A DNA stretch of 64,000 nucleotides from Escherichia coli O127:H6 str. E2348/69 (GCF_000026545.1 NC_011601.1), one strand, 5' to 3'; shown: positions 1 to 24,785, counted from the stretch's first letter. Made by a program: numbers and translations. The notes: generated by a model not told the origin, from the letters alone.

Positions 1-2
1 CA

Positions 3-758
3 ACCGTTCCTCAGCACCTGGCAGGAAAGCCTGCTGATTGTCTGGCAGTTACCATGCAGGCGGCGCAATGGGGCATGAACCCGTTCGCTGTTGCGCAGAA
101 GACGCACGTTGTAAACGGAACTCTTGGCTATGAAGCACAACTGGTTAACGCCGTCGTGTCTTCTTCAAACCTGCTTTCAACTCGCCTGAATTACCGCTGG
201 GATGGTGACTGGTCAAAGGTGAATGGCAAGAGCGACAAATCACCATCACTGACCGTTACAGTATCGGCAGTACTGAAAGGCGAAGCAGAGCCGCGCGAGC
301 TTACCATCAGCATGGCTCAGGCAGGTGTCCGTAACTCTCCGCTGTGGGAACAGGATCCACGACAGCAGCTTGCTTACCTGTGCGTTAAGCGTTGGGCTCG
401 TCTGCATGCACCTGATGTTCTGCTCGGAGTATACACCCCTGACGAATTGCAGGAGACAACACCGCGTGTTGAGCGCGACATCACGCCATCTGCGGCAACG
501 GCTCAGGGCATGAACAGCCTGATCAACTCAAAACCAGAGCAGAAGCAGGAAGAGCGTCAGCAGCATAAAGACGATCGCGGTCCTGAAGAGATTTTGCACG
601 CATTTTCCGGCGCGGCGATGAACTACAACACCCAGGCTGACCTGGACAAAGCATACAAATACGTTGCCCAGAAACTGGCTGGTGATGATGACCTGCTGGC
701 AAAAGCAACCGATGTTTACACCATCCGTTGTGACGAACTGAACGAAGTACCGATGTAA
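3..758 (+). CDS. Bet/RecT-family single-strand annealing recombinase (phage), 5'-partial, continues upstream of window
   Basis: Frame is open from position 3 with no stop. Translation 'QWGMNPF...NSPLWEQDPRQQLAYLCVKRWARLHAPDVLLGVYTPDE' parallels lambda Bet 'QYGLNPW...GPWQSHPKRMLRHKAMIQCARLAFGFAGIYDKDE', compared from memory. Confidence 0.55.
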   Translation, partial: TVPQHLAGKPADCLAVTMQAAQWGMNPFAVAQKTHVVNGTLGYEAQLVNAVVSSSNLLSTRLNYRWDGDWSKVNGKSDKSPSLTVTVSAVLKGEAEPRELTISMAQAGVRNSPLWEQDPRQQLAYLCVKRWARLHAPDVLLGVYTPDELQETTPRVERDITPSAATAQGMNSLINSKPEQKQEERQQHKDDRGPEEILHAFSGAAMNYNTQADLDKAYKYVAQKLAGDDDLLAKATDVYTIRCDELNEVPM

Positions 759-801
759 TCACCACTGCGGCGCCACGCGCGCCGCAAATGCAAGAGAGGT
801 A

Positions 802-1053
802 ATGATGAAAAGAGCATTTGGCAAAAAGGAACTGATGGCAGTGGTGCCGGTATCGATGAGCACCATTGACCGCATGGAGCGCAATGGCGAGTTCCCGCAG
901 CGCTTCTGGATCACTGATAAACGTTGTGCATGGAATGCTGAAGAGGTTGAGAACTGGCTTGATGAGCGTCAGGCCACCAGCCCGGCAGAGTTCACCGGAA
1001 AAAAGCCGCCGGTTGATCAGCGTGTTTACCGCCCAGTAAGTAACGCCGCATGA
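802..1053 (+). CDS. AlpA-family phage HTH regulator/excisionase-like protein
   Basis: 83 aa; 'MSTIDRMERNGEFPQRFWITDKRCAWNAEEVENWLDER' fits the AlpA/MerR-type HTH pattern; strong SD 'agagagg' 3-9 nt upstream of the ATG. Confidence 0.6.
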   Translation: MMKRAFGKKELMAVVPVSMSTIDRMERNGEFPQRFWITDKRCAWNAEEVENWLDERQATSPAEFTGKKPPVDQRVYRPVSNAA

Positions 1054-1162
1054 CAGCGCTGATCAGGCACTGGGAAAAATGGTCAGGATGGTACTTATTC
1101 CTGACCGCCGTTTCCGCCTGGCTGTATCTGCTGGCGGTAATTTTCAGAGAAGGCTGGATCCG

Positions 1163-1462
1163 ATGAGCAAATTAACCCGTCTTGAAAAGTATCACCTGAA
1201 CTATGTGTCTCAGCGTCAGGCTTCAAAGGTTGTCGCCGTTACTCCGGCGGCGATAGAGGTAGAAAAGCGCGCTGTTGAGCGTGAATCGAAAGGCCAGTAC
1301 CGCATTGCAGCCCGACTCTGGTTGCTGTGTATGGATGTAGCGGTCGGTGAAGTGGAGCGCGCCAGAATAGCGATACGCCGTGATCAGTGCATATCAAAAG
1401 GTAACGGCCTGCGCCGAGGCGAATATGCAGGGATCGGATGTCGCGGGGTGGTGTATGACTAA
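1163..1462 (+). CDS. hypothetical phage protein (start chosen at internal Met of the 127-aa ORF)
   Basis: ORF only; no recognisable motif; sits in the same-strand gene array between the AlpA-like and ASCH genes. Confidence 0.3.
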   Translation: MSKLTRLEKYHLNYVSQRQASKVVAVTPAAIEVEKRAVERESKGQYRIAARLWLLCMDVAVGEVERARIAIRRDQCISKGNGLRRGEYAGIGCRGVVYD

Positions 1463-1613
1463 TCCTCACGACAATATCAGCGTCGGCAGTATCACGCTGG
1501 TTTATTCAGCTCTGCGCCGCGGGTGGCTTGTACCTGGCGGAAGTGTCATACAGAACCCATTAAAGGCTCAGCGCATTGCTGAGCTGATGAACAGCAAGAA
1601 GGTGGCGGCATGA
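1425..1613 (+). CDS. hypothetical small phage protein
   Basis: ORF whose stop overlaps the next start (ATGA at 1610-1613); start at internal Met 'MQGSDVAGW'. Confidence 0.3.
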   Translation: MQGSDVAGWCMTNPHDNISVGSITLVYSALRRGWLVPGGSVIQNPLKAQRIAELMNSKKVAA

Positions 1614-2323
1614 AAGAGCGCGGAATGATTTTTAACGGAGAGATGGTGCGCGCCCTGCTGGACGGACGGAAGACGCAGACGCGGAGACCTCTCAAATGGA
1701 AGCAAACTCGGTTTACTGAAATAGCTGAACGCGAAGACGGTAGCCATTGGCCGTGGAGTGAGGATGCAGAAAATGTGTGCGATTTCTGGCATCCATGCCC
1801 GTTCGGTGCCGTCGGCGATCGCATCTGGGTGCGGGAGACGTGGGGCGTAGTGAGTCATGAACTGGATGAAGACGGTCGCATTCAGCCATGGATCCCTGAC
1901 CGACCTGCCACAGCCATTCACGAGATGCCGTTTGGTAATGGCTACTATTCTGGTCACGCTATCTACGCCGCAGATGGTGATTTTACATGGGGTGATGATG
2001 ATGGTTATGAAGATGGTCGTTCGTGCTGGAAACCATCTATCCATATGCCACGCGCAGCATGTCGCATTCTGCTGGAGGTTACCGGCGTGCGGGTGGAGCG
2101 CTTGAACGCTATCAGCGAAGAGGATGCGCGAGCAGAAGGAATTATTGACGGTGGCTGTCTCAATTGCGGTGAACCTGAACCATGCGGTTGCGCTAATCCA
2201 GATCCTGACGCGACAGATGCCTTCGCTTACCTGTGGCAATCGATCTATGGGCAGGAAAACTGGAACGCGAACCCTTGGGTATGGGTCATCGAGTTCAAGC
2301 GCGTTGAAGGCGGTGCAGCATGA
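1610..2323 (+). CDS. ASCH-domain protein
   Basis: N-terminus 'MIFNGEMVRALLDGRKTQTRRP' and C-terminus 'WVWVIEFKRV' resemble the ASCH family (e.g. YqfB 'ILAGRKTITIR ... FYVIEFKCL', from memory); SD 'aaggtgg' upstream. Confidence 0.55.
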   Translation: MKERGMIFNGEMVRALLDGRKTQTRRPLKWKQTRFTEIAEREDGSHWPWSEDAENVCDFWHPCPFGAVGDRIWVRETWGVVSHELDEDGRIQPWIPDRPATAIHEMPFGNGYYSGHAIYAADGDFTWGDDDGYEDGRSCWKPSIHMPRAACRILLEVTGVRVERLNAISEEDARAEGIIDGGCLNCGEPEPCGCANPDPDATDAFAYLWQSIYGQENWNANPWVWVIEFKRVEGGAA

Positions 2324-2913
2324 ACGGTAAATACACTCTGATTTATGCTGATCCTCCTTGGTCATACCGCGACAAAGCAGCCGACGGCGAGCGCGGCGCC
2401 GGATTTAAATATCCGGTTATGAACGTGCTGGATATCTGTCGCCTGCCAGTGTGGGATCTTGCCGCCGACGATTGCCTACTGGCAATGTGGTGGGTTCCTA
2501 CTCAGCCGGTTGAGGCGTTGAAAGTGGTCGAATCGTGGGGCTTCAAGCTGATGACCATGAAGGGATTCACCTGGCACAAGACGAATAAGCACAAAGGTAA
2601 CAGCGCGATCGGCATGGGCCACATGACAAGGGCGAACAGCGAAGACTGCCTGTTTGCGGTGCGTGGGAAACTACCGGCCCGCATGGATGCGTCAATCTGC
2701 CAGCACGTCACGGCGCCGCGCATGGAAAACTCGCGCAAGCCTGACATCATCCGCGAAAAACTGGTGCAGTTGCTGGGCGATGTTCCGCGCATTGAGCTAT
2801 TCGCCCGCCAGTCGTCACATGGTTTCGACGTATGGGGCAATCAGTGCGAAGGCCCGTCGGTGCAGTTGCTACCAGGCTGCTCTGTTCCGGTTGTAAGGAC
2901 GGAGGCAGCATGA
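2320..2913 (+). CDS. MT-A70 family DNA N6-adenine methyltransferase (orphan)
   Basis: 'YADPPWSY' DPPW catalytic motif near the N-terminus; 197 aa; start overlaps the ASCH stop (ATGA). No restriction endonuclease gene nearby. Confidence 0.7.
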   Translation: MNGKYTLIYADPPWSYRDKAADGERGAGFKYPVMNVLDICRLPVWDLAADDCLLAMWWVPTQPVEALKVVESWGFKLMTMKGFTWHKTNKHKGNSAIGMGHMTRANSEDCLFAVRGKLPARMDASICQHVTAPRMENSRKPDIIREKLVQLLGDVPRIELFARQSSHGFDVWGNQCEGPSVQLLPGCSVPVVRTEAA

Positions 2914-3089
2914 CAATGTTCAATGAGGCGGAGTTAATCCGCCAACTGGAAGAACAGCGCGCTGTGATTGTGCAGAAAAGTGCTCAAGTTAACTGGTTGC
3001 AAACTGAAAACAGTGTTTTGCACAAGAAATGTGAAGAACTGCAAATGACAGTTGATCTACAGCGAGAATTTATACAATCCAGAAATTAA
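2910..3089 (+). CDS. hypothetical small protein
   Basis: Start at internal 'MTMFNEAELIRQLEEQ' with SD 'aggacggagg'; overlaps the integrase stop by 4 nt. Confidence 0.3.
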   Translation: MTMFNEAELIRQLEEQRAVIVQKSAQVNWLQTENSVLHKKCEELQMTVDLQREFIQSRN

Positions 3090-4339
3090 TCACCTTCACT
3101 CATCCATCGCTCAAACTTCGACGGGGAGAATGGCACCAGATCGGTGTGCTCCCCGCTAATCCAGGCATCAACCATATCTGCCCACTGCTGCAACATGTAG
3201 GCGCGCTGCCTGGCGTACTCCGCTTTGTTGTATACCGCACGCACTCCCTTTTGCTCATGCGCCAGCGCCTTTTCAATCCAGTCTGATGGATAACCAGCCT
3301 CATGCAACAGCGTACTGGCTGTGCGGCGCAGGTCGTGCACAGAGAATTCATCAAGATGCCCACCAGCCTCGCTCACCGCTTCGACGGTGGTATTGATCAG
3401 CCTGTTCAGTGCGCCATTGGATAACGGCTTGCTAACCGAATAGCGCCCGGGCAAAAGGTAATCACTTCCACCAGCGCACATCTGCAGGCCAACAATGAGA
3501 TCCTGCGCCTGCTTTGGCAGATAGATAACGTGTGACCGGCTTCCCTTCATTCGTTCCGCCGGTATCGTCCATGTCCATTTTTTGAAATCGATTTCTGACC
3601 ATGTGGCGTTGGTGAACTCGCTTTTGCGAACCAGGGTGAGCAGCACCAGTTTTAATGCCAGTTTCATTGTGGCCATAGCCCCGACATTATCCAGCGCCCG
3701 GAAGAATACGCCTATCTCTTCAGGTTGCAGCGTGCGGTCGCGCGGCTTGAACATGGCTATTGATGAAGGCTTGATATCAGCAGCAGGATTAAACAGGCCA
3801 TGCCCGCGATCATTAGCGTGACGGTATACACTGCTGATTATCTCTCTGGCTTGCACTGCCGTAGCCCGGCCTCCACGTTCAACAATGCGATCGCACAGGT
3901 CACGCACCATGCCGGTGGTTATCTCAGCCATCATTTTGTTACCCAGCACCGGCATGATGTCGCGATCGATAACGGCCTGTTTCATCGCCCGGGTACTGTC
4001 AGCCAGAATGACGTGCTTCATATAGCTGTCGGTATGTACCGCGAAGGTTTCAGCACCACGGATCTTTTTGATACCGTCACGTTTCGCCGCAGCTGGCGAC
4101 TGGCCTGCCTTTAACAGTTTTTTGGCAGCAATGAGTTCTTCTCGTGCTTCCGCCAGGCTGATACCGTCACGACCGTACTGACCGATGACCAGCGTTTCCC
4201 GGCGCCCGTTAATGCGGTAGTCGTACCGGAAAGAGACAGAACCGGAAGTAAGCACCGCAACATACAGCCCGTCACGATCCGAAACCTTATACAGTTTGTC
4301 CTGCGGCTTGAGGTTTTTCAGTTTGGTATCAGTAAGCAC
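3086..4339 (-). CDS. int: P4-type tyrosine integrase (site-specific recombinase), GTG start
   Basis: 417 aa; N-terminal 'LTDTKLKNLKP...DGLYVAV' arm-binding type domain; C-terminal 'HDLRRTASTLLHEAGY...VRAVYNKAEY' contains the H-x-x-R ... Y catalytic signature. Confidence 0.85.
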   Translation of the reverse strand: MLTDTKLKNLKPQDKLYKVSDRDGLYVAVLTSGSVSFRYDYRINGRRETLVIGQYGRDGISLAEAREELIAAKKLLKAGQSPAAAKRDGIKKIRGAETFAVHTDSYMKHVILADSTRAMKQAVIDRDIMPVLGNKMMAEITTGMVRDLCDRIVERGGRATAVQAREIISSVYRHANDRGHGLFNPAADIKPSSIAMFKPRDRTLQPEEIGVFFRALDNVGAMATMKLALKLVLLTLVRKSEFTNATWSEIDFKKWTWTIPAERMKGSRSHVIYLPKQAQDLIVGLQMCAGGSDYLLPGRYSVSKPLSNGALNRLINTTVEAVSEAGGHLDEFSVHDLRRTASTLLHEAGYPSDWIEKALAHEQKGVRAVYNKAEYARQRAYMLQQWADMVDAWISGEHTDLVPFSPSKFERWMSEGD

Positions 4340-4463
4340 AATTCACCCGTAAAGCATCCATGGTTTGACGGTATGAAGAGTATACCTTTAAGGTAATACC
4401 GTCACCTGTACCGATGAAAAATGTGAGATAGAGTGAATAGATATGATGTGATATAAAGAAAAA

Positions 4464-4490
4464 CCCTCTGTAAAAACAGAGGGTTGATTG
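4464..4490 (-). terminator. guaA intrinsic terminator
   Basis: Hairpin ccctctg/cagaggg (4464-4483) followed on the minus strand by a T-run. Confidence 0.6.
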
Positions 4491-4531
4491 CATAACTGAA
4501 TAGAAATGATTAGCTGTGAGTTAGCTGTACA

Positions 4532-6109
4532 TCATTCCCACTCAATAGTTGCTGGTGGCTTGCCGCTGATGTCATACACCACGCGGGAAATACCATTCAC
4601 TTCATTGATAATGCGGTTGGAAACGCGACCGAGGAAATCGTACGGCAGATGTGCCCAGTGTGCGGTCATAAAGTCGATGGTTTCGACAGCACGCAGAGAA
4701 ACAACCCAGTCATACTTACGACCATCGCCCATTACGCCAACGGAACGTACTGGCAGGAAGACGGTGAACGCCTGGCTGACTTTGTCGTACAGGTCCGCTT
4801 TACGCAGTTCTTCAATGAAGATGGCGTCAGCACGGCGCAGCAGGTCACAATACTCTTTCTTCACTTCTCCCAGAACACGAACGCCAAGGCCTGGTCCCGG
4901 GAACGGGTGACGGTACAACATGTCATACGGTAGGCCCAGCTCCAGACCAATCTTACGCACTTCGTCTTTGAACAGCTCTTTCAGCGGTTCAACCAGGCCC
5001 ATCTTCATCTCTTTCGGCAGGCCACCCACGTTGTGGTGAGATTTGATGACGTGTGCTTTACCGGTTGCAGAAGCAGCAGATTCGATAACGTCAGGGTAGA
5101 TGGTGCCCTGCGCCAGCCACTTCACGTCTTCCAGTTTCAGCGCTTCTTCATCGAATACTTCAACGAAAACGCGCCCGATGATTTTACGTTTTGCTTCCGG
5201 ATCATTTTCGCCAGCCAGCGCTGACAAGAAGCGATCTTCTGCCGGTACGTGAACAATATTCAGACCAAAGTGATCGCCAAACATATCCAGAACCTGCTCT
5301 GCTTCGTTGAGACGCAGCAGGCCGTTGTCGACGAATACGCAAGTCAGGTTTTTACCGATAGCGCGGTGCAACAGCATTGCGGTTACGGAGGAATCCACGC
5401 CACCAGAGAGGCCGAGGATGACTTTATCGTCACCGACCTGCTCGCGGATGCGGGCTACAGCGTCGTCGATAATTTTCGCGGGCGTCCACAGGGCTTCACA
5501 CTGGCAGATATCACGCACAAAACGCTCCAGCATGCGCATACCCTGGCGGGTGTGAGTCACTTCCGGGTGGAACTGTACGCCATAGAAGCGTTTTTCTTCG
5601 TTGGCCATGATGGCAAACGGGCAGCTTTCGGTGCTGGCTACGGTGACAAAGTCGGACGGGATAGCGGTAACTTTATCGCCGTGGCTCATCCAAACGTCCA
5701 GCAGCGGTTTACCATCTGCGGTCAGCGCATCTTCGATACCGCGAACCAGTGCGCTGTCGTTTACGACTTCAACCTGCGCGTAGCCAAATTCACGTTCATT
5801 AGAGGCCTCAACGTGACCGCCCAACTGCATCGCCATGGTCTGCATGCCATAGCAAATGCCGAATACCGGTACGCCTGCTTCAAAGACATACTGCGGCGCA
5901 CGCGGGCTGTTTTCTTCGGTGGTGCTTTCCGGGCCGCCGGAAAGAATAATGCCGCTTGGATTGAAGTCACGAATTTGTGCTTCTGTCACATCCCACGCCC
6001 ACAGTTCGCAGTAAACACCCAGCTCACGCACGCGGCGCGCAACCAGTTGAGTGTACTGAGAACCGAAGTCCAGAATGAGGATGCGATGCTTATGAATGTT
6101 TTCCGTCAT
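4532..6109 (-). CDS. guaA: GMP synthase (glutamine-hydrolysing)
   Basis: 525 aa; '[36 protein letters not shown]...' recognised as E. coli GuaA. Confidence 0.97.
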
Positions 6110-6177
6110 TGACGCTTATTCCGAGGCAAGTGAAACAGATAATATAAATCGCCCGACATGAAGTCGGGCGAAGAGAA

Positions 6178-7644
6178 TCAGGAGCCCAGACGGTAGTTCG
6201 GGGACTCTTTAGTAATGGTCACGTCGTGAACGTGGCTTTCCTGAATGCCCGCACCGCTGATACGTACAAACTCCGCTTTAGTACGCAGTTCGTCGATAGT
6301 ACCACAGCCGGTCAGGCCCATACAGGAGCGCAGGCCGCCCATCTGCTGGTGAATGATCTCTTTCAGGCGACCTTTATAGGCTACGCGACCTTCGATACCT
6401 TCCGGCACCAGTTTGTCGGCAGCGTTGTCGCTCTGGAAGTAACGGTCAGAAGAACCTTTGGACATCGCGCCCAGGGAACCCATACCACGGTAAGATTTGT
6501 AAGAACGGCCCTGGTAGAGTTCGATTTCCCCCGGAGATTCTTCAGTACCCGCCAGCATGGAACCTACCATCACCGCGCTTGCGCCAGCGGCGATAGCTTT
6601 GGCGATATCGCCTGAGAAACGGATACCGCCGTCAGCGATAACCGGAATGCCGGTACCTTCCAGGGCTTCTACTGCATCAGCAACGGCGGTGATCTGCGGA
6701 ACACCGACGCCAGTCACGATACGCGTCGTACAGATAGAACCAGGGCCGATACCCACTTTAACGGCACTGCAACCGGCTTCTGCCAGCGCACGGGCACCTG
6801 CAGCAGTTGCCACGTTGCCGCCGATGATTTGCAGGTCAGGATATTTAGCGCGAGTTTCACGGATACGCTGCAGAACACCTTCAGAGTGACCGTGAGAGGA
6901 GTCGATCAGCAGAACGTCAACGCCTGCGGCAACCAGCGCATCAACACGCTCTTCGTTACCAGCGCCAGCGCCAACCGCTGCACCTACACGCAGACGGCCT
7001 TGTTCGTCTTTACACGCGTTCGGTTTACGTTCCGCTTTCTGGAAGTCCTTCACAGTGATCATGCCGATCAGGTGGAATTCATCATCAACCACCAGCGCTT
7101 TTTCAACGCGTTTTTCGTGCATTTTTGCCAGCACCACTTCACGGGCTTCGCCTTCACGCACGGTTACCAGACGCTCTTTCGGCGTCATGTAAACGCTAAC
7201 CGGCTGGCTCAAGTCGGTCACAAAACGCACGTCACGACCGGTGATAATGCCGACCAGTTCGTTTTCTTCGGTAACAACCGGGTAGCCAGCAAAGCCGTTA
7301 CGCTCGGTCAGTTCTTTCACTTCACGCAGCGTCGTGGTTGGCAGTACGGTCTGCGGATCGGTTACCACGCCAGATTCGTGTTTTTTCACACGGCGAACTT
7401 CTTCTGCCTGGCGTTCAATGGACATGTTTTTGTGGATAAAGCCGATACCGCCTTCCTGAGCCAGAGCAATAGCCAGGCGCGCTTCCGTTACGGTATCCAT
7501 TGCTGCGGAAAGCATAGGGATATTCAGACGAATAGTTTTCGTCAGCTGGGTGCTGAGGTCAGCAGTATTCGGCAGAACGGTAGAATGTGCAGGAACGAGG
7601 AGAACGTCGTCAAACGTCAGAGCTTCTTTAGCGATACGTAGCAT
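6178..7644 (-). CDS. guaB: IMP dehydrogenase
   Basis: '[21 protein letters not shown]...' recognised as E. coli GuaB; start set at the internal Met to give 488 aa. Confidence 0.95.
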
Positions 7645-9391
<1,747 letters not shown>

Positions 9392-9454
9392 CAGAGTTTC
9401 CTGCGTTTTTAATGACGATGTCAAACATTAGCACATGTTTACCAGCATTAAAAA

Positions 9455-9486
9455 CCGCCCCATGTAAACACATGGGAGCGGTTTTC
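9455..9486. terminator. Bidirectional intrinsic terminator between yfgJ and the adhesin island
   Basis: Imperfect hairpin ccgccccatgt/acatgggagcgg flanked by an A-run and a T-run. Confidence 0.5.
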
Positions 9487-9507
9487 TACTACTTACTTAA
9501 CAATGAA

Positions 9508-11811
9508 TTACTGGGCGCAAATCTGGAGAGATGACTGGGCGCCGTACTCTAATCCTCCCGTCAGCATATTCATCCATTGAGTAATGGAAGTCGGATTATT
9601 AGTCCAGTACCCTTTATTGCCGTTCCCCGCAGGCCATCCACCTTTCAGATAATATACATGCAGAAAATCAACTTCAGCGCGAAGCGCACTTAAATCGGCA
9701 ACTGTCGGGTATTTATCTGCGGCACAACCACCACTACCTATAGCTGCTTGCGATGACGTTACCATTGCCCAGTTTTCTGCGACCTGCATACCTAACCGAT
9801 CGCTTGCAAACTTATATGAATCCCCCGCATTTGGTAATTCACTAAAAAGTTTCGGGCGATTAAATGTCCGACCATTCAGCGTTAACGTATCTTCCATATA
9901 CCCCCAAAACTCAGCGTCAGGCGTATCCGGGCTGGTAATTGTCTCAAAAATGACTGGCATTGATCCTTGAGCTGTTCGCTCACTCAGATCCGACTTGTCA
10001 TTCTGGATATATATATCGTGGAGGCTTCCCAAACCGTTTGTATTTTGTGCCAATGTAAATTCAAAGAAACCAGACTTATCCGCTGTCGCATAATAATACC
10101 TCATCTCATCAATACTATGAGTCTTTTGCGTACTATTGACTATAGTCATATCGGCAACCCCACTCTTATTCCCCTGACGGCTTATTGGATAACGATATGT
10201 CATTGTTCCCGGTGCATATGGAACACCTTTCCCACTACCATCCACAGCCTGAAGACGGACCTTCACTGACTGTTTACCAACTGTTTTCCCTTTGAATGCG
10301 TTAAAAGTACCTCTACTGTTACTTCCATGGTTGAAACCAACAACTGAAACCATATCCGACGGATTTATAAGCTTATATTTCGTAATTTTCGGATTCGTAG
10401 TCTGCTGGCACATTACCAAAAAGCCGTTTACTGTTACTGGATCAGGGACAAACTGATCAGAAGTCGTGCTTCTATTACTCAGATTAACCATCAGGAAATT
10501 ACGACTACTAACAACGGCTGAGTCTGACGTTTTTGAATGGTAGTTAGCGCTTACAGGCAAACCTGTTTTGGCCTTCACCCCATCAGGATAAGCATCGATC
10601 AACGAGTTCAGGTTCTGTTGCGTTGGAACATTGAGTGATCCTCCAGGGCCACATCCCCCCCTTTTCTCAACCGCTGTTTCAAGGTGATTATTCCTGACCA
10701 GAACCCAGGATTCATTTGATTCTAAGACACTCTTAAAGGGGTTTTGTACCTCAGTAGCAAGTCTGGGGCGCTTAAACACAATACCGTTACTGGCCTTAAA
10801 CGTTTCACTCATATGGCCCCACATATTGGCGAGCGTGCTGTCCGGGCTGGTGATCACGGTAAAAGTGACATCTTGCGTCAAGGGAGTACTCATGCCGGTA
10901 GCAGTAATGTACAGCGGTGTTTTTACCCCTATCCCCTCATTTTGCGTTACCGCGATGGTCGCGATGCCACCTTCCCCCGTTACCCCTTTGTATTCCGTGG
11001 TGGTGTCGGTCATAACTGTACCGCCCAGCGAAACGGGGGCACCAGTATCATTTGCAACATTCTGACGGTTAGTGGGTACGCCGCGCCTAACAGTAAAAGG
11101 CGTGCCCGCTTTCAGATTGCCATCACAATCTTTCACCGTCAGAGTCAACGTAATGGTCTCCCCAACTTTCGCTTTCGCTGCACTTATGCTGGCGGCAATC
11201 GGCGTTGCCACCGCAGCCGCCACATTCAACGGGAATTTGGTATTCGCTAACGACACAGGCCCATTATCCGGTACACCTGATGTGGTATGCAGTAACAGCG
11301 TTGCCGCACTATTGCTATCGACTTTTGGCCACACTACTAACTGCCCGGAAAGATTTTGCTCACAAAAAGAGAGGGCTATATTCGGTTGTGGATTGAGGGG
11401 CTCATTGGGTTTATCCGCTTTAGCCCAGACCAGACTGACATCTGGGGCAACATCATTTAGCCATGAGAGCTGTGGTATATCATCAAAACGATCCCCTTCG
11501 GCATCTGATGGATTCGTCAGATACAGTTTTTCCGGTGTCGTGTCAGCACTGAATGCTTTCGGCAATGCCGTTGCAACAATGGCAGTCGTAGTTGCAGGAT
11601 CAAGTTTCGTACTTCCCTGATATACTGGAACAGACACACTTTCTGCCGTCGGCGGTGTACCGTTAAGCTTACCTGTGGTTTGGTTCTCGCTTTGCCATAT
11701 GCCAGAGTTATCGGCCTGCACAGGAAAAGCAGCACACATTGATAACAGGATGCAGCTAACGCTGGTTTTTAATCTAAAATTCCCTTCCATGAGTGATCCC
11801 GCTGTAGTCAT
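9508..11811 (-). CDS. Secreted Ig-like (Big) domain protein, RatA-like; start ambiguous (11790, 11811 or TTG at 11823)
   Basis: Signal peptide 'LKTSVSCILLSMCAAFPVQA'; Big-like segment 'TLTLTVKDCDGNLKAGTPFTVRRG'; internal duplication of a ~130-aa domain ('MWGHMSETFKASNGIVFKRPRL...' and 'FWGYMEDTLTLNGRTFNRPKL...'). Confidence 0.65.
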   Translation of the reverse strand: MTTAGSLMEGNFRLKTSVSCILLSMCAAFPVQADNSGIWQSENQTTGKLNGTPPTAESVSVPVYQGSTKLDPATTTAIVATALPKAFSADTTPEKLYLTNPSDAEGDRFDDIPQLSWLNDVAPDVSLVWAKADKPNEPLNPQPNIALSFCEQNLSGQLVVWPKVDSNSAATLLLHTTSGVPDNGPVSLANTKFPLNVAAAVATPIAASISAAKAKVGETITLTLTVKDCDGNLKAGTPFTVRRGVPTNRQNVANDTGAPVSLGGTVMTDTTTEYKGVTGEGGIATIAVTQNEGIGVKTPLYITATGMSTPLTQDVTFTVITSPDSTLANMWGHMSETFKASNGIVFKRPRLATEVQNPFKSVLESNESWVLVRNNHLETAVEKRGGCGPGGSLNVPTQQNLNSLIDAYPDGVKAKTGLPVSANYHSKTSDSAVVSSRNFLMVNLSNRSTTSDQFVPDPVTVNGFLVMCQQTTNPKITKYKLINPSDMVSVVGFNHGSNSRGTFNAFKGKTVGKQSVKVRLQAVDGSGKGVPYAPGTMTYRYPISRQGNKSGVADMTIVNSTQKTHSIDEMRYYYATADKSGFFEFTLAQNTNGLGSLHDIYIQNDKSDLSERTAQGSMPVIFETITSPDTPDAEFWGYMEDTLTLNGRTFNRPKLFSELPNAGDSYKFASDRLGMQVAENWAMVTSSQAAIGSGGCAADKYPTVADLSALRAEVDFLHVYYLKGGWPAGNGNKGYWTNNPTSITQWMNMLTGGLEYGAQSSLQICAQ

Positions 11812-11899
11812 TATCTGGTTCAATATACTTTGCTTAATGGTTGATTAAGCAAAGTATGCTGGTAATGCCACTCCCCGAAGGAAGTGGCATTGGGCATAA

Positions 11900-19991: not shown

Positions 19992-20990
19992 CTAATAGTA
20001 ACTGCGCATCCTTCTTTCTCTGGATATGTTCAAGCGCGCTTTTCTCAGCACCAGCAACAGCGGCTTACTTCTTAACAATTCACAAAGCGTTATCGCCTTC
20101 GGTGAGTACTGTCTGGCTTGCAGCGCCTCTCTACGCTCTACCTCTGCGGCTTTTCTGAGGGCTAGCGTTTGTAAGTTGTAGTATGTTTTATCGCTACATG
20201 TAACGATGATTGGTTTCACATGTGATCGTTCGGGTGAGTCAGCCAGTGTTCGCTGTATCCTGCGGCGCTGCGCTGGTCTTTTTGCTTTTGACGCTTCAAG
20301 TTTCAACTGCGTACGCCGTACTTCAAAGTATCCCGCTGCTTCTGGGGTTATGATCTGCGATGCGTGCGTTGCCCAATTACTGGATGACGCCCATACGGAC
20401 ACTGATAACCAGTCGTACGGGCTTTTTTCTGCTCTGGCATTAAACTCCTTAAGTTTAGTTTTACCTTTTGTAAGGTACGATAGGACTTCAAAACTGTAAA
20501 CGAATCTAACATCTTGATTTTTAATTAAATTATTGCGACCCTCATATGGCTGGCGCTTTACCCACGCAACCAGCAGGTCTCTCGCTATGCTCTCATCTGG
20601 AACTTTCACAATCATGTGTAAATGTAGGGTATCCTGAAACGCCGCCCACTCAACACAATATATCCACGGAATACTGCGTCTCGTAAGCGAGCGTGTGAAT
20701 GTGGTTATCGCCGTTTTCAAAGTCTCCGGCGTGATGCACTGTGCTGGGCGTAAGGTCAGCAAATATACGTTTCCACCTTGTGTAGCATCCAGATCGATAG
20801 AGAGTAGACGTCTTTTGAAGGCTCTAAGCCTGTCAATCGAAAAAGCCACTTTGCGCTTTCTGATGTGGCTGTTTGGGCTTGTTTTCTTTCTTTGCTTGTT
20901 TTGGTTGCGTGGTTTCATGTAAGCGTCAACAAATGCACCACGCTTGCGCACGATGTATTGTTCAGCGCGATCCCCGTGATATAATTTCAT
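19992..20990 (-). CDS. HUH-type rolling-circle replication initiation protein
   Basis: 332 aa; 'TLHLHMIV' gives a His-hydrophobic-His motif; downstream 'SYLTKGK' is a candidate catalytic Tyr; ATG with SD. Confidence 0.55.
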   Translation of the reverse strand: MKLYHGDRAEQYIVRKRGAFVDAYMKPRNQNKQRKKTSPNSHIRKRKVAFSIDRLRAFKRRLLSIDLDATQGGNVYLLTLRPAQCITPETLKTAITTFTRSLTRRSIPWIYCVEWAAFQDTLHLHMIVKVPDESIARDLLVAWVKRQPYEGRNNLIKNQDVRFVYSFEVLSYLTKGKTKLKEFNARAEKSPYDWLSVSVWASSSNWATHASQIITPEAAGYFEVRRTQLKLEASKAKRPAQRRRIQRTLADSPERSHVKPIIVTCSDKTYYNLQTLALRKAAEVERREALQARQYSPKAITLCELLRSKPLLLVLRKARLNISRERRMRSYY

Positions 20991-21042
20991 TGCGAATATG
21001 TTCCTAAAATTACCCGCCTGGCAGGGCGGGTTTTTTTATGTC

Positions 21043-21432
21043 TTACAGGTACTTTTCCCCAATTGCTTGCGTTATCTCTGAGAACGACGATTCAGACACG
21101 TCCCCTCTGATCCCCCTAAGTATTCGTAACGCAGACTCAACCTTGCGTAATATCTTCGTGTATCTTGCATTGGTGCGCCATATACAAAGCATTCCCGCTT
21201 TGTCGAGTCGGTATTTTACCAAATCCCTTTCAGGAATGTGATATGCACCATCCATGCGCTGTTCGACGGGGATACCCCAGTCATTACGTAACAGAGTTAA
21301 AACACGGCTGCGCTCATGTCCACCAGCAGAAGATAAGTACCTGTCAAATTGGGTTGGGGTGAGGCTATGACCATCTAACAGAATATCGCGGATCTGTGCG
21401 GTAGCTTGGTTTCGTGTCAATGCTTTCATCAT
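21043..21432 (-). CDS. hypothetical protein (129 aa; truncated from the 231-aa ORF)
   Basis: Start at internal 'MMKALTRNQ' with SD-like 'aagggg' upstream; the longer ORF form would overlap the HTH gene in another frame. Confidence 0.4.
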   Translation of the reverse strand: MMKALTRNQATAQIRDILLDGHSLTPTQFDRYLSSAGGHERSRVLTLLRNDWGIPVEQRMDGAYHIPERDLVKYRLDKAGMLCIWRTNARYTKILRKVESALRILRGIRGDVSESSFSEITQAIGEKYL

Positions 21433-21439
21433 TTGCCCC

Positions 21440-21622
21440 TTACAGAAACCGGGCTGCGAATTGGTCGAGATCTGCAACCAACCATACTCTGCGCTTTCTG
21501 CCGTTGATAGACTGGACGGTGCAAGTCGGAAAAGCTGGAATGTAACGCTTATATTGGTAAAAGCGTGATAGACAAACGCCAAGATATTGCGCGGATTCTC
21601 GCGCGGTAAGGTAATTTTCCAT
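21440..21622 (-). CDS. AlpA-like excisionase/HTH regulator (60 aa)
   Basis: 'LTARESAQYLGVCLSRFYQYKRYIPAFP...NGRKRRVWLVADLDQFAARF' fits the AlpA/Xis HTH pattern; first gene after the integrase. Confidence 0.6.
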   Translation of the reverse strand: MENYLTARESAQYLGVCLSRFYQYKRYIPAFPTCTVQSINGRKRRVWLVADLDQFAARFL

Positions 21623-21824
21623 AATAACGATCCATGTTTATGTTTTGTCCACATTATGGGGCATCCTGCCCCATAAATACTGTACATAATTTTTTCAATT
21701 ATCCCAAGTCTACAACCAAAAAATCTCCCGCGTAGCAATCCCTATAGTTCGCCCTTGTTCTGTTTCAATTTCATATACGCTAGCTCCACACAAGCTGTAT
21801 CGCCACCATAATTTCGATCTCCGG

Positions 21825-23087
21825 CTAATTACAGTTACTATATTTTTTCATGGGGACGACGTTGTAATCTTCACCACTTTCCAGCGTAACCAGCAGTTCA
21901 GCCCACTGCTCCAATGCAGCTTTTCTCTCTTCAAAATAGTGGTGGCGATTATAAATACCTTCAACACCGGGTATTTTATGATTAAGACATCTTTCAGCTA
22001 TTACAGGATCAATCCCCAATGCTGCCATCTGGGTACGCATCGTACGTCGTAAGTCATGAATGCTAAATGGCTCAACATCAGGCATCTCTTTTAATACTGA
22101 AGGCAAAACCATATTCAGCGTACTGCGACTAACGTGCGATGTAGTCCTCCCCCTCCTTGCCGGAATTAACCAGCGGCTATTACCAGCAAACAGACGGATT
22201 TCCTTGATCCATTCGATAACAGGATCAGCTAGCGGGATGTCTATCTCCTCACCATTTTTTGCTCGATCAGCAGGAAAATGCCAAACTTTTTCATCAAGAT
22301 TAAACTCCGACCACTCGGCAGCGCATAATTCCATCTTGCGAACCCCTAGCGCGAGAATGATTTTAAACGTTAACTCATTCTCTCTGCTAATACCCCGCCC
22401 CTTACGCAGAGCTTTAAAAAACATTACTAGCTCCTCACGCGTGAGTGCTCGCTTACGCCCTTGCTCTTTCCCGCCTGCATCTTTTGAACTAAATGAAATC
22501 GCGGGGTTTACTTCAATCATCCCGCGTACAACAGCATAATCAAAAAGGCGCTTAAGCATTCTTAGCACGTCATTCGCAACGGTAGGAGAACCGCGCTCTA
22601 ATACATTCTGCAAAACATAGTCGATATGTTTCGGGCGTACATCCTCAATTTTCATTTTGCCGATAGATGCGACAATGTTTTTTTGTAAGCTACTGCGAAA
22701 TAACTCCGGATGCTTGTAAGTGGGTTCTATCTGCCGCGAGTAATACTCAGCGGCTAAATCTGATACTCGTTTTGCGTTCTTTTGCGCTTCAATCTTTTCC
22801 AATGCTTCAGCTTTTCGCTTCTGTTTCTCTCCTGCTACGTCATAACCAAGAGAAACACGGGCTGCCAGTTCTCTGGCGACCTCTCTTGCTTTTGCAAGAG
22901 AGAAATCAGTATACGAACCAATCAGCACAACTCGCGATTTTCCGCCTAACTTGTAACGAAAGCGCCAGTTAGGGAGTTTGTCACTTTTCCTAAATCGAAG
23001 ATAAAGCCCGTTTCCGTCTGCCTTACCTTCGAATCTCTCATCGGATTTAATCCAAGCTTTGATTTGTAGGTCAGTTAATTTTGCCAT
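21825..23087 (-). CDS. int: P4-type tyrosine integrase
   Basis: 'MAKLTDLQIKAWIK...GNGLYLRF' N-terminal domain; C-terminal 'HDLRRTMRTQMAALGI...GIYNRHHY'; start set at ATG 23087 with SD 'aggtg' (track start is a GTG at 23096). Confidence 0.85.
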   Translation of the reverse strand: MAKLTDLQIKAWIKSDERFEGKADGNGLYLRFRKSDKLPNWRFRYKLGGKSRVVLIGSYTDFSLAKAREVARELAARVSLGYDVAGEKQKRKAEALEKIEAQKNAKRVSDLAAEYYSRQIEPTYKHPELFRSSLQKNIVASIGKMKIEDVRPKHIDYVLQNVLERGSPTVANDVLRMLKRLFDYAVVRGMIEVNPAISFSSKDAGGKEQGRKRALTREELVMFFKALRKGRGISRENELTFKIILALGVRKMELCAAEWSEFNLDEKVWHFPADRAKNGEEIDIPLADPVIEWIKEIRLFAGNSRWLIPARRGRTTSHVSRSTLNMVLPSVLKEMPDVEPFSIHDLRRTMRTQMAALGIDPVIAERCLNHKIPGVEGIYNRHHYFEERKAALEQWAELLVTLESGEDYNVVPMKKYSNCN

Positions 23088-23131
23088 TACGAACACCTGA
23101 ATACGTTACATCGGGTACGCAAAGCCATCGT

Positions 23132-23216
23132 CACCGTGTACCCAATTTCTAACACCGTGTACCCAAACCGCAAGAACCTCTCTTTGGGTACACTTTTGTG
23201 TACACAATATCTTGCA
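23132..23216. repeat. Integrase-proximal repeat cluster: two direct 'caccgtgtacccaa' copies 21 bp apart, inverted 'tgggtacac', palindrome GTGTACAC; includes right boundary repeat (23185-23216)
   Basis: Read directly from the sequence; position between the integrase start and the der terminator suggests arm-type or regulator binding sites and attachment-site sequence. Confidence 0.5.
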
Positions 23217-23250
23217 TCTTTATGAACTGTTATGACAACTAGTGATAATA

Positions 23251-23280
23251 AAAAAGCCCGCAATATGCGGGCTTATAAGG
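23251..23280 (-). terminator. der intrinsic terminator
   Basis: Hairpin agcccgca-ata-tgcgggct followed on the minus strand by 'tttttatt'. Confidence 0.6.
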
Positions 23281-23312
23281 TTTTGTAGTGTTTAGTGAAT
23301 CGTGATGATTCG

Positions 23313-24785
23313 TTATTTGCTTTTCTTGATATGCTTCATCAAACGCTTACGCTTGCGCATCTGGGTTGGCGTCAGGGTATTACGCTTGTTCGCATACGGG
23401 TTTTCCCCTTCTTTGAACTGAATACGAATCGGCGATCCCATTACGTCCAGCGATTTGCGGAAGTAGTTCATCAGGTAACGCTTGTAGGAATCCGACAGGT
23501 CTTTCACCTGATTACCGTGAATCACCACAATCGGCGGGTTATAACCACCGGCGTGGGCATATTTCAGCTTCACACGACGACCGCGTACCAGCGGCGGTTG
23601 GTGATCTTCAACAGCCATCGTCATGATGCGCGTCAGCATAGAGGTCCCCACACGACGGGTGGAGCTGTCATACGCTTCACGTACTGATTCAAACAGGTTA
23701 CCAACACCACTGCCGTGCAAGGCAGAGATAAAGTGCACACGAGCAAAATCGATAAAACCCAGACGGAAGTCCAGCGTTTCTTTCACCTGCTCTTTCACTT
23801 CCTGGCTCAGGCCATCCCACTTATTCACCACAATGACAAGTGAGCGCCCACTATTGAGAATAAAGCCCAGCAGCGAGAGATCCTGATCGGAAATACCTTC
23901 GCGGGCGTCAATCACCAACATCACCACGTTGGCATCTTCAATGGCCTGCAACGTTTTGATTACCGAGAACTTCTCTACCGCATCGGTGATTTTGCCGCGT
24001 TTACGTACGCCAGCGGTGTCAATGAGCACATACTCACGTCCGTCGCGTTCCATTGGAATGTAGATACTGTCACGCGTCGTGCCAGGCATGTCGTAAACAA
24101 CAACGCGCTCTTCACCAAGAATACGGTTAGTGAGTGTAGACTTACCTACGTTCGGGCGACCCACAATCGCCAGTTTGATCGGCAGACTTTGCGGGTCGAA
24201 GTCGTCTTCCTCTTCTTCTTCGCCGTTCTCTTCCGCTTCAAATTGCGCCCAGTATTCGGCGTCTTCGTCGACTTCTTCTTGCGGTGCGAGATCTTCCATC
24301 CACGGCAGCAGCACGTGCTCCAGCAGACTTAATACGCCACGACCGTGAGACGCGGCGATCGGGTAGATTTCACCTAAACCAAGCGCGTAGAAATCAACCA
24401 CTGCCTGATCGGGATCCAGACCGTCAGTTTTGTTTGCCACCAGGAAGGTCGGTTTTTCACGGGAGCGCAGATGTTTGGCAATCGCTTCATCTGCCGGCAT
24501 AAGGCCCGCGCGCGCATCCACCATAAACAGTACGACGTCCGCTTCTTCAATCGCCAGCAGCGACTGTTCCGCCATGCGGGTTTCTACACCGTCTTCTGTG
24601 CCATCAATCCCGCCGGTATCAATGCAGATAAACTCACGGCCTTCAATTTCCGCACGACCGTACTTACGGTCACGAGTCAGACCCGGGAAATCCGCAACCA
24701 GCGCATCTCGGGTGCGAGTTAGACGGTTAAATAACGTGGATTTTCCTACGTTAGGGCGCCCGACAAGCGCGACCACAGGTACCAT
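23313..24785 (-). CDS. der: Ribosome-associated GTPase Der (EngA)
   Basis: Two GTPase domains ('[14 protein letters not shown]', '[14 protein letters not shown]'); start at internal Met gives 490 aa. Confidence 0.95.

Follow-up and report, generated by a model that had tools for sequence, protein, structure and literature searches.

A guaA prophage, a rare adhesin haplotype and a small island at der around a short core block of the Escherichia coli E2348/69 chromosome

The DNA analysed here is a 64,000-nucleotide stretch of the Escherichia coli O127:H6 E2348/69 chromosome (the window, in what follows), whose first 24 kb match three assemblies of this enteropathogenic E. coli (EPEC) strain at 100% and hold a short block of core genes, namely guaA, guaB and the 5' half of xseA. 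Around this block there appear to be three accessory modules, each acquired independently of the others (we put the probability of this reading at roughly 0.85): a prophage integrated at the 3' end of guaA, a segment of adhesin genes reaching from xseA towards der, and a small integrase-bearing island at the 3' end of der (the der island). The reading is carried by chromosomes in which these modules come separately. K-12 has none of the three; in strain A25 the adhesin segment, including the remnant of an IS4-family insertion sequence (IS), lies directly against der, and neither integrase element is present; and the enterotoxigenic E. coli (ETEC) strain 2011EL-1370-2, which lacks the adhesin genes, combines a guaA prophage with the same integrase island, the latter lying directly between der and a yfgJ of K-12 type. 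The der island is also found without the adhesin segment in ST70, MB50 and PS2C. From the arrangements of A25 and of the ETEC strain it follows that the adhesin segment and the der island are independent of each other, and that the whole of 9.5-23.1 kb cannot be one island. An earlier note, made from the sequence of the window alone, had described two P4-type islands, one at guaA and the other between yfgJ and der. The former is in fact part of a prophage of 40.3 kb, whose right end is inside the window and whose remainder is outside it, and the latter falls into two independent things, an integrase-less adhesin segment and an island of 7.47 kb.

The core genes and the two integrase genes are placed as follows (all positions are those of the window, unless an extracted record is named):

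3086-4339, minus strand: int of the prophage, 417 amino acids (Pfam Arm-DNA-bind_3, Phage_int_M and Phage_integrase)
4532-6109, minus strand: guaA, intact (list of open reading frames and RefSeq annotation)
6178-7644, minus strand: guaB (RefSeq annotation)
21825-23087, minus strand: int of the der island, 420 amino acids from an ATG at 23087, or 423 amino acids from a GTG if the gene begins at 23096 (Pfam)
23313-24785, minus strand: der, intact, its product ending in ...KKSK (annotation)

Between the two integrase genes lie guaA, guaB, xseA and a yfgJ-like gene; to the right of xseA and yfgJ, the minus strand carries a ratA-like gene, sinI and sinH, after which come the IS4 remnant, the der island and der itself. 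The elements PP6 and IE5 of E2348/69 are elsewhere in the genome. The 5' end of each int adjoins its own junction (guaA or der), and the gene reads into its own element, with 192 bp between the core of the attachment (att) site and the start of int in the prophage and 217-226 bp in the der island; open reading frames, Pfam matches and junction positions agree on this, and they bear out the two inward-reading integrase genes that the earlier note had placed here. Both proteins have the same three-domain layout, an N-terminal Arm-DNA-bind_3, a central Phage_int_M and a C-terminal, catalytic Phage_integrase domain, all above the Pfam cutoffs, and both align over their full length with the integrase of P4 (28% identity and E 4e-41 for the prophage protein, 25% and E 5e-18 for that of the der island), which makes "P4-type" a fair description in the family sense. 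The catalytic R..HxxR..H..Y positions are conserved in both, and VR(K/S)SE, H(D/G)(L/F)R and a terminal H...Y are seen in the alignments. What does not hold is that they are unrelated: with 27% identity to each other and an E value of 2e-40, the two integrases are distant homologues, while the elements that carry them are of different kinds.

No tRNA or tmRNA gene was found by the tRNA scan in the whole 64-kb window, and no Rfam family matched in 1-25000, so there is no hidden RNA gene that could be the target of integration. The earlier view that both insertions avoid tRNA genes is right to that extent, although they are not intergenic, given that each crossover core falls within the final codons of a protein gene (guaA or der). 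This bears directly on the possibility that two P4-type islands sit in intergenic DNA and that the second spans all of yfgJ to der. Such an arrangement would account for the two inward-reading integrase genes, for the low guanine-cytosine (GC) content that the composition profile gives across 9.5-23 kb and for the lack of tRNA genes. Against it, the edge of the second element is a repeat of the der end at 15842, not yfgJ, no att-like repeat of the der end adjoins yfgJ at about 9400-9500 in the repeat search, each core overlaps the 3' end of a coding sequence, the element on the left is a complete prophage, and the adhesin segment and the island are each found without the other, as described above. 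We regard it as very improbable. Similarly, of the core block that had been drawn from guaBA through xseA to yfgJ, only the part up to about 8500 is core, the 3' half of xseA and yfgJ belonging to a rare divergent haplotype.

Taking the modules of the preferred reading in turn, the left one is represented in the window by the following features:

1-4530: right (integrase-proximal) end of the prophage, the remainder lying to the left of the window as far as yfgI (annotation of identical records)
1163-1462, plus strand: PerC-family transcriptional regulator, inside the guaA prophage (annotation)
2320-2913: MT-A70 methylase (annotation)
4462-4485, minus strand: terminator hairpin, now 3' of guaA and supplied by the phage (repeat search, alignment and terminator scan)
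4531-4546: attR core ATCATTCCCACTCAAT, comprising the last four guaA codons, the stop codon and flanking bases (direct repeat and alignment to the empty site of K-12)

The other prophage genes in the window are those for RecT (cut by the window edge), a helix-turn-helix (HTH) protein and a DUF1317 protein. The complete record shows a block of some 40 kb from yfgI to guaA, with genes for lysis, tail, T7-gp14-like core, capsid, portal and terminase proteins, as well as replication (P/DnaT-like), repressor, RecT/nuclease, PerC-family and MT-A70 genes. The structural half (virion and lysis module) shares 91.6% identity, over 68% of its length, with the Salmonella phages SPN1S, SPC32H and SPN9TCW, and 77.8% identity with phiV10. 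Judged by this gene content and these identities, the left element is an epsilon15/phiV10-like (Uetakevirus) prophage of about 40.3 kb. It has in common with the prophages of that group (epsilon15, phiV10, vB_EcoP_ZX5, SPN1S) the att core, the 3' end of guaA as target and a podovirus gene set of about 40 kb that includes an O-antigen acyltransferase. RefSeq annotates, in addition, a pseudogenic tRNA-Gly inside this prophage, outside the window (extracted record L002, 34271-34383), and PerC-family genes are also present in sister guaA prophages (extracted records L005, 1891-2142, and L016, 2423-2722).

The ends of the prophage are marked by an exact 16-bp direct repeat, ATCATTCCCACTCAAT, whose two copies are 40,297 bp apart, attL lying outside the window (extracted record L002, 9448-9463). 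Read as its reverse complement, the repeat gives ...ATTGAGTGGGAATGA, which comprises the last four codons of guaA (I-E-W-E) and its stop codon, and in the alignment with the empty K-12 site the switch between bacterial and phage sequence falls exactly at it. A core attgagtgggaatgatt has been shown experimentally for phiV10, epsilon15 and vB_EcoP_ZX5, at 190 bp from the integrase gene's 5' end (PMC9782041); the core of the present prophage agrees with 16 of the 17 bases of the published one. The hairpin on the phage side reproduces the native terminator hairpin of guaA to 93% and stands in for the displaced original. The proposed mechanism is that the P4-like tyrosine integrase of the prophage would have recombined at this 16-17-bp core, overlapping the last four codons and the stop codon of guaA, and that the phage, by bringing a look-alike terminator on its own side, would have left guaA intact.

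How often is this site used? With a 2-kb query made from the empty K-12 site, the guaA junction was found unbroken in 4,567 of the 5,425 complete E. coli genomes, and in the remaining 858 (15.8%) it is split precisely where guaA ends; these carry an insert of more than 1.5 kb at yfgI/guaA. These occupancy counts are joined BLAST places with a gap limit of 1.5 kb, inserts shorter than that being scored as empty, and about 290 of the 858 occupied sites, left unclassified, have no integrase within megablast range. The prophage int allele of E2348/69 is uncommon: at an identity of at least 99% it was found in the assemblies of this strain only, and to the common integrases of E. coli guaA prophages, present in 563-570 genomes, it is just about 82% identical in nucleotides. 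The RecT, PerC and MT-A70 genes of its early region, on the other hand, are common to other guaA prophages, and the occupied site sampled in isolate 624 holds a sister prophage. At another occupied site, that of E. coli ET350, a 3.6-kb insert without an integrase encodes two DUF262-domain proteins (extracted record L017, 1386-4615), which are likely defence cargo. The standing of the guaA site as a hotspot is already known, since guaA-yfgI is integration hotspot #10 of a survey in which 121 of 1,276 genomes were occupied (Hochhauser, Millman and Sorek 2023, PMC10121019); the flanking core genes are the same, and the occupancy is of a similar order to that found here. In the parts of the supplementary files of that survey that were available, no hotspot is flanked by yfgJ, xseA, der or bamB.

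The second module, on the far side of guaBA, is made up of these features:

7806-9179, plus strand: xseA, mosaic, typical of phylogroup B2 to about 8500 and then 63-78% identical to CFT073 and K-12
9176-9391, minus strand: divergent yfgJ-like zinc-ribbon gene, its product 64% identical in amino acids to YfgJ of K-12 and CFT073
9508-11790, minus strand: RatA-like adhesin, 760 amino acids (Pfam BIg21 and InvE adhesion domains)
11900-12856, minus strand: SinI-family protein, 40% identical to SinI of CFT073 (annotation)
12904-15108, minus strand: SinH intimin-like inverse autotransporter (Pfam IAT_beta, E 1.7e-107), 70.5% identical to SinH of CFT073
15568-15833, plus strand: remnant of an IS4-family transposase (annotation; same sequence in the island-free A25)

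Because the IS4 remnant is also present in A25, which is free of the island, it belongs to the adhesin haplotype and not to the integrase island. Sliding identity to CFT073, likewise of phylogroup B2, stays at 97% or above between guaA and about 8000, is 89-91% at 8000-8300 and 98-100% at 8300-8500, and then falls to 63-78% over the remainder of xseA beyond about 8500, the comparison with K-12 being similar. To 8400-9290, 4,774 genomes have a match of only 60-80% identity, and the E2348-type segment is present at an identity of at least 95% in only 7 of 5,426 genomes. From about 8500 to 15841 (about 7.3 kb), neither an integrase nor an att repeat was found. The xseA-der interval is polymorphic and exists in three haplotypes (the K-12, CFT073 and A25 forms), of which this stretch is the third and a very rare one, its xseA' and yfgJ part being 63-78% identical in nucleotides to other E. 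coli. In the identity profile, the segment has the appearance of a homologous replacement from a divergent donor, probably with its left breakpoint inside xseA and its right end at der. Its genes are not new to this neighbourhood. The form xseA-ratA-sinI-sinH-yfgJ-der, that is, the ila cluster in the region between xseA and yfgJ, has been described as derived from the Salmonella CS54 island, and sinH, sinI and ratA of CS54 and of the ila cluster of extraintestinal pathogenic E. coli (ExPEC) are homologous to those of E2348/69 and have the same surroundings. Unlike that cluster, which in CFT073 and AH50 has the order xseA-ratA-sinI-sinH-yfgJ-der and lies between xseA and yfgJ, the cluster of E2348/69 lies between yfgJ and der, in the order xseA-yfgJ-ratA'-sinI-sinH-der, and its RatA-like protein has 760 amino acids against the 2,683 of the CFT073 homologue, with which it shares 34% identity.

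The third module, the der island, extends over 15842-23333 and measures 7,471 bp when one repeat copy is counted. Its boundary features are the following:

15842-15862: attL, displaced native fragment of the der 3' end, TTACTTACTTTTCTTAATATG (junction alignments with the empty sites of A25 and K-12 and with ETEC; same structure in five other genomes)
15924-15945: likely arm-type site, TGGGTACAC..GTGTACAC, at the island end distant from int (repeat search)
23132-23206: cluster of likely arm-type sites (CACCGTGTACCCAA twice, TGGGTACAC and GTGTACAC), between int and the att core
23254-23274, minus strand: terminator hairpin supplied by the island, now 3' of der (terminator scan; differs from the native sequence of K-12 and A25)
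23313-23333: attR, TTATTTGCTTTTCTTGATATG, the stop codon and last six codons of der, of which the first 8 nucleotides come from the island, with the crossover within TTTTCTTGATRTG

Junction alignments and a motif search in six occupied genomes show the island to be bounded by an imperfect direct repeat of 21 bp that corresponds to the 3' end of der, TTAYTTRYTTTTCTTGATRTG. At the end away from int, the repeat has the native version of the host, TTATTTAT... in K-12-type and TTACTTAC... in B2-type hosts, and is followed by island DNA (AAACAC...), whereas the copy on the der side is the version of the island, TTATTTGC..., in all six. As a native end on the far side and an island end on der are found in six genomes out of six, the crossover must fall in TTTTCTTGATRTG, 8-21 nucleotides inside der from its stop codon, and the island supplies the final der codons (K-S-K-stop). 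The C-terminus of Der is thereby rewritten from KKNK to KKSK in K-12-type hosts, while in B2 hosts the change is synonymous (window 23313-23320 against extracted record L003, 9885-9892). Mechanistically, the P4-like integrase of the island would have recombined within TTTTCTTGATRTG, in the final codons of der, and the island would bring replacement codons (..K-S-K-stop) and its own terminator, the native 21-bp der end staying at the far junction. The 64-kb window has four exact GTGTACCCA sites, against about 0.5 expected by chance, and all of them are found within about 70-190 bp of one or other core; because of this clustering at the island ends the repeats are probable arm-type binding sites of the integrase. 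An imperfect repeat of 39 nucleotides (15924-15962 and 23185-23223) was considered as the att pair and is ruled out by the empty-site alignments; it lies inside the island and probably consists of arm sites.

In contrast to guaA, the der site is seldom occupied. The integrase and att region of the der island were found in 19 of 5,426 genomes (0.35%), corresponding to 16 strains and one fragment, the latter being a genome that retains only 25% of the integrase. The der junction was contiguous in 5,401 genomes, as the K-12 form in 3,652, the CFT073 form (sinH-yfgJ-der) in 1,744 and the A25 form in 5, and the near-absence of other insertions means that, by occupancy, the der site is not a hotspot. 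The earlier idea of a recombination hotspot and its proposed test, a comparison of occupancy across E. coli, can thus be answered in parts: the guaA-der interval is variable and not invariant, which is due to the guaA site (858 of 5,425) and to the three haplotypes of the polymorphic xseA-der interval, but the der site contributes little (19 of 5,426). Outside E. coli, a scan of one genome per species revealed an island backbone of the E. coli type next to der in E. albertii (NBRC 107761; L011) and, in Klebsiella michiganensis DSM 25444, an 84%-identical integrase directly 3' of der (L014, 9753-21239). The K. michiganensis element is a different, larger one with a similar cluster of GGTGTACCCA arm motifs, and its far end is beyond the extracted region. 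The end of an E. coli der gene, the der island, with a larger cargo slot (about 3455-9012), and a yfgJ of K-12 type are also found together on contig DXAP01000044.1 (extracted record L012), which was assigned to a metagenome-assembled genome (MAG) labelled 'Candidatus Ligilactobacillus excrementavium' but is almost certainly E. coli sequence that was binned wrongly.

A blastn comparison of six islands divides the element into two backbone arms, conserved at 91-99% (15842 to about 16859 and about 19374 to 23333), and a variable slot between them. The genes are:

15959-16558, minus strand: AlpA-family HTH protein, 199 amino acids, in the conserved left arm (Pfam Phage_AlpA as the C-terminal domain; phrog_66)
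16860-19373: variable cargo slot of 2.5 kb, about 33% GC (six-island blastn and composition profile)
17065-17724, minus strand: HalB-like nucleotidyltransferase (NCBIfam anti_phage_HalB; PDB 9dbh)
17726-18847, minus strand: HalA-like effector, with a pentapeptide-repeat part followed by a membrane part (NCBIfam anti_phage_HalA; PDB 9nyi)
19992-20990, minus strand: Rep-like protein, 332 amino acids, putative HUH-type initiator (sub-threshold Pfam match and motifs)
21043-21654, minus strand: backbone gene, 203 amino acids, conserved in E. albertii (annotation)

The AlpA-family protein is likely an excision factor (excisionase) or a regulator, and the 203-amino-acid backbone protein has no family match in Pfam, PADLOC-DB, PHROGs or NCBIfam. 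The Rep-like protein, with motifs (HLHMIV and YLTKGK) reminiscent of HUH initiators and a REP_ORF2-G2P score of 27.1 bits against a Pfam cutoff of 27.8, may replicate the excised island circle. The slot genes of E2348/69 appear, by homology, to be those of the anti-phage system Hailong (HalA/HalB). HalA passes the NCBIfam equivalog model anti_phage_HalA (295.2 bits against a cutoff of 250) and matches HalA of PDB 9nyi with an E value of 8e-35 over residues 87-372; HalB reaches 187.7 bits against the cutoff of 190 of anti_phage_HalB and matches HalB of PDB 9dbh with an E value of 4e-19. The two genes abut (17724/17726), the adjacency of a nucleotidyltransferase gene and a membrane-effector gene being like that of Hailong, and both proteins match full-length PHROG families; PADLOC-DB 2023 returned nothing for HalA and only generic nucleotidyltransferase matches for HalB. 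They differ from the known system in their divergence from the solved chains, to which the E values above refer, and their activity is a predicted one. According to the passage of a review that cites Tan et al. 2025, short DNA signals made by HalB keep the HalA channel closed, and when phage nucleases strip these signals, HalA depolarises the membrane.

In other strains the same slot is filled differently. AH50 and PS2C have a cyclase of the cyclic-oligonucleotide-based anti-phage signalling system (CBASS) with a two-transmembrane (2TM) effector, ST70 and its relatives have PDC-M43A/B (extracted record L006, 9796-11551), and MB50 and six others have an ATPase of 849 amino acids (PDC-M26A-like) together with a DUF2357 protein of 618 amino acids (L007, 7253-11670). 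Since the slot is otherwise occupied by Hailong or CBASS, its use supports a defence role for the candidates PDC-M43 and ATPase plus DUF2357.

Several observations weigh against parts of this picture. The prophage contains three annotated gene fragments and so may possibly not be inducible; we infer the homologous-replacement origin of the adhesin segment from the identity profile alone, and the integration and excision of either element in E2348/69 from sequence; the Rep assignment is made from a sub-threshold Pfam match and short motifs; and HalB is 2.3 bits below its NCBIfam cutoff. As for the der island, the far-side der repeat of E2348/69 has a G-to-A mismatch in the core (CTTAATATG against CTTGATATG), and the island may be decaying in this strain. 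Taken further, these signs would mean that the E2348/69 island is an immobile, decaying remnant, and its closest relative, the ETEC copy, indeed shows decay, in that its int is frameshifted, IS1 has inserted and the repeat has lost 1 bp, other copies have an IS3 insertion or an int split by IS1, and the one 25% integrase fragment and the occupancy of 0.35% point the same way. A single core mismatch outside the overlap region is often tolerated, nevertheless, and in E2348/69 the int, Rep-like and AlpA genes are all full length, with the catalytic motifs VRKMEL, HDLRRT and LNH..GIY present in the integrase. Moreover, unrelated strains with K-12-type or B2-type surroundings, and E. albertii too, share the backbone at 91-99% identity, which indicates recent horizontal spread. 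On balance, an immobile remnant is unlikely.

If the der island is instead an element capable of spread, does it depend on a helper phage? A satellite resembling the phage-inducible chromosomal islands (PICIs) would combine, as this island does, a backbone of int, AlpA-family and putative Rep genes with small size and a defence cargo slot, and the full-length PHROG matches of HalA and HalB count in its favour. Such a pattern of small int/AlpA/Rep islands with a defence slot is known from PICIs and from P4-like satellites (PMC10121019). Searches with Pfam, PHROGs and NCBIfam, however, detected no gene for packaging, for capsid remodelling or of terS-like type in the island, and the Rep-like protein has neither a PDB relative nor a match in 50,697 phage records, its only homologues, distant and weak, being on Klebsiella plasmids of 5-13 kb. 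Typical E. coli PICIs, besides, are larger than 7.5 kb. Helper dependence in place of a self-contained island consequently seems improbable to us, more so than decay. Among known kinds of element, the der island resembles the P4-like satellites in having a P4-like integrase beside att and a conserved backbone with swappable defence cargo, and differs from P4 in having no alpha primase, sid, psu or delta. With the islands that target tRNA or tmRNA genes (the logic of Islander) it shares the regenerated 3' end of the target and the displaced fragment at the far end, although its target is the protein-coding gene der and not a tRNA gene.

Literature searches found no publication that names a der- or yfgJ-associated island. 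The paper on the E2348/69 genome by Iguchi and colleagues, from 2009, probably lists it as an integrative element. As a tentative proposal, to which we give less than even odds, the der element would belong to an undescribed family of small integrative islands, possibly satellite-like or replicating by rolling circle, with a backbone of int, the 203-amino-acid gene, an HUH-Rep-like gene and an AlpA gene, the essential GTPase gene der as target in Escherichia (and in Klebsiella via a related integrase), and a single exchanged defence cassette. This der-targeting family of mini-islands with an exchangeable defence cassette is the only mildly new item in the region, and it is an element of a well-known kind.

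Altogether, the map of a much-used EPEC reference genome is corrected to an ordinary guaA prophage, a rare adhesin haplotype and a separate small defence island. Beyond this strain, both elements illustrate that P4-like integrases have the 3' codons of protein-coding housekeeping genes (guaA and der) as their targets, following the same rule of bringing their own 3' end and terminator that is seen at tRNA targets. The der island is also a natural example of one backbone in which four defence cassettes have been swapped, and backbones of this sort can serve in the search for new systems, for which PDC-M43 and the ATPase and DUF2357 pair are candidates. Finally, a natural Hailong system, as predicted here for E2348/69, may affect phage work with this strain.

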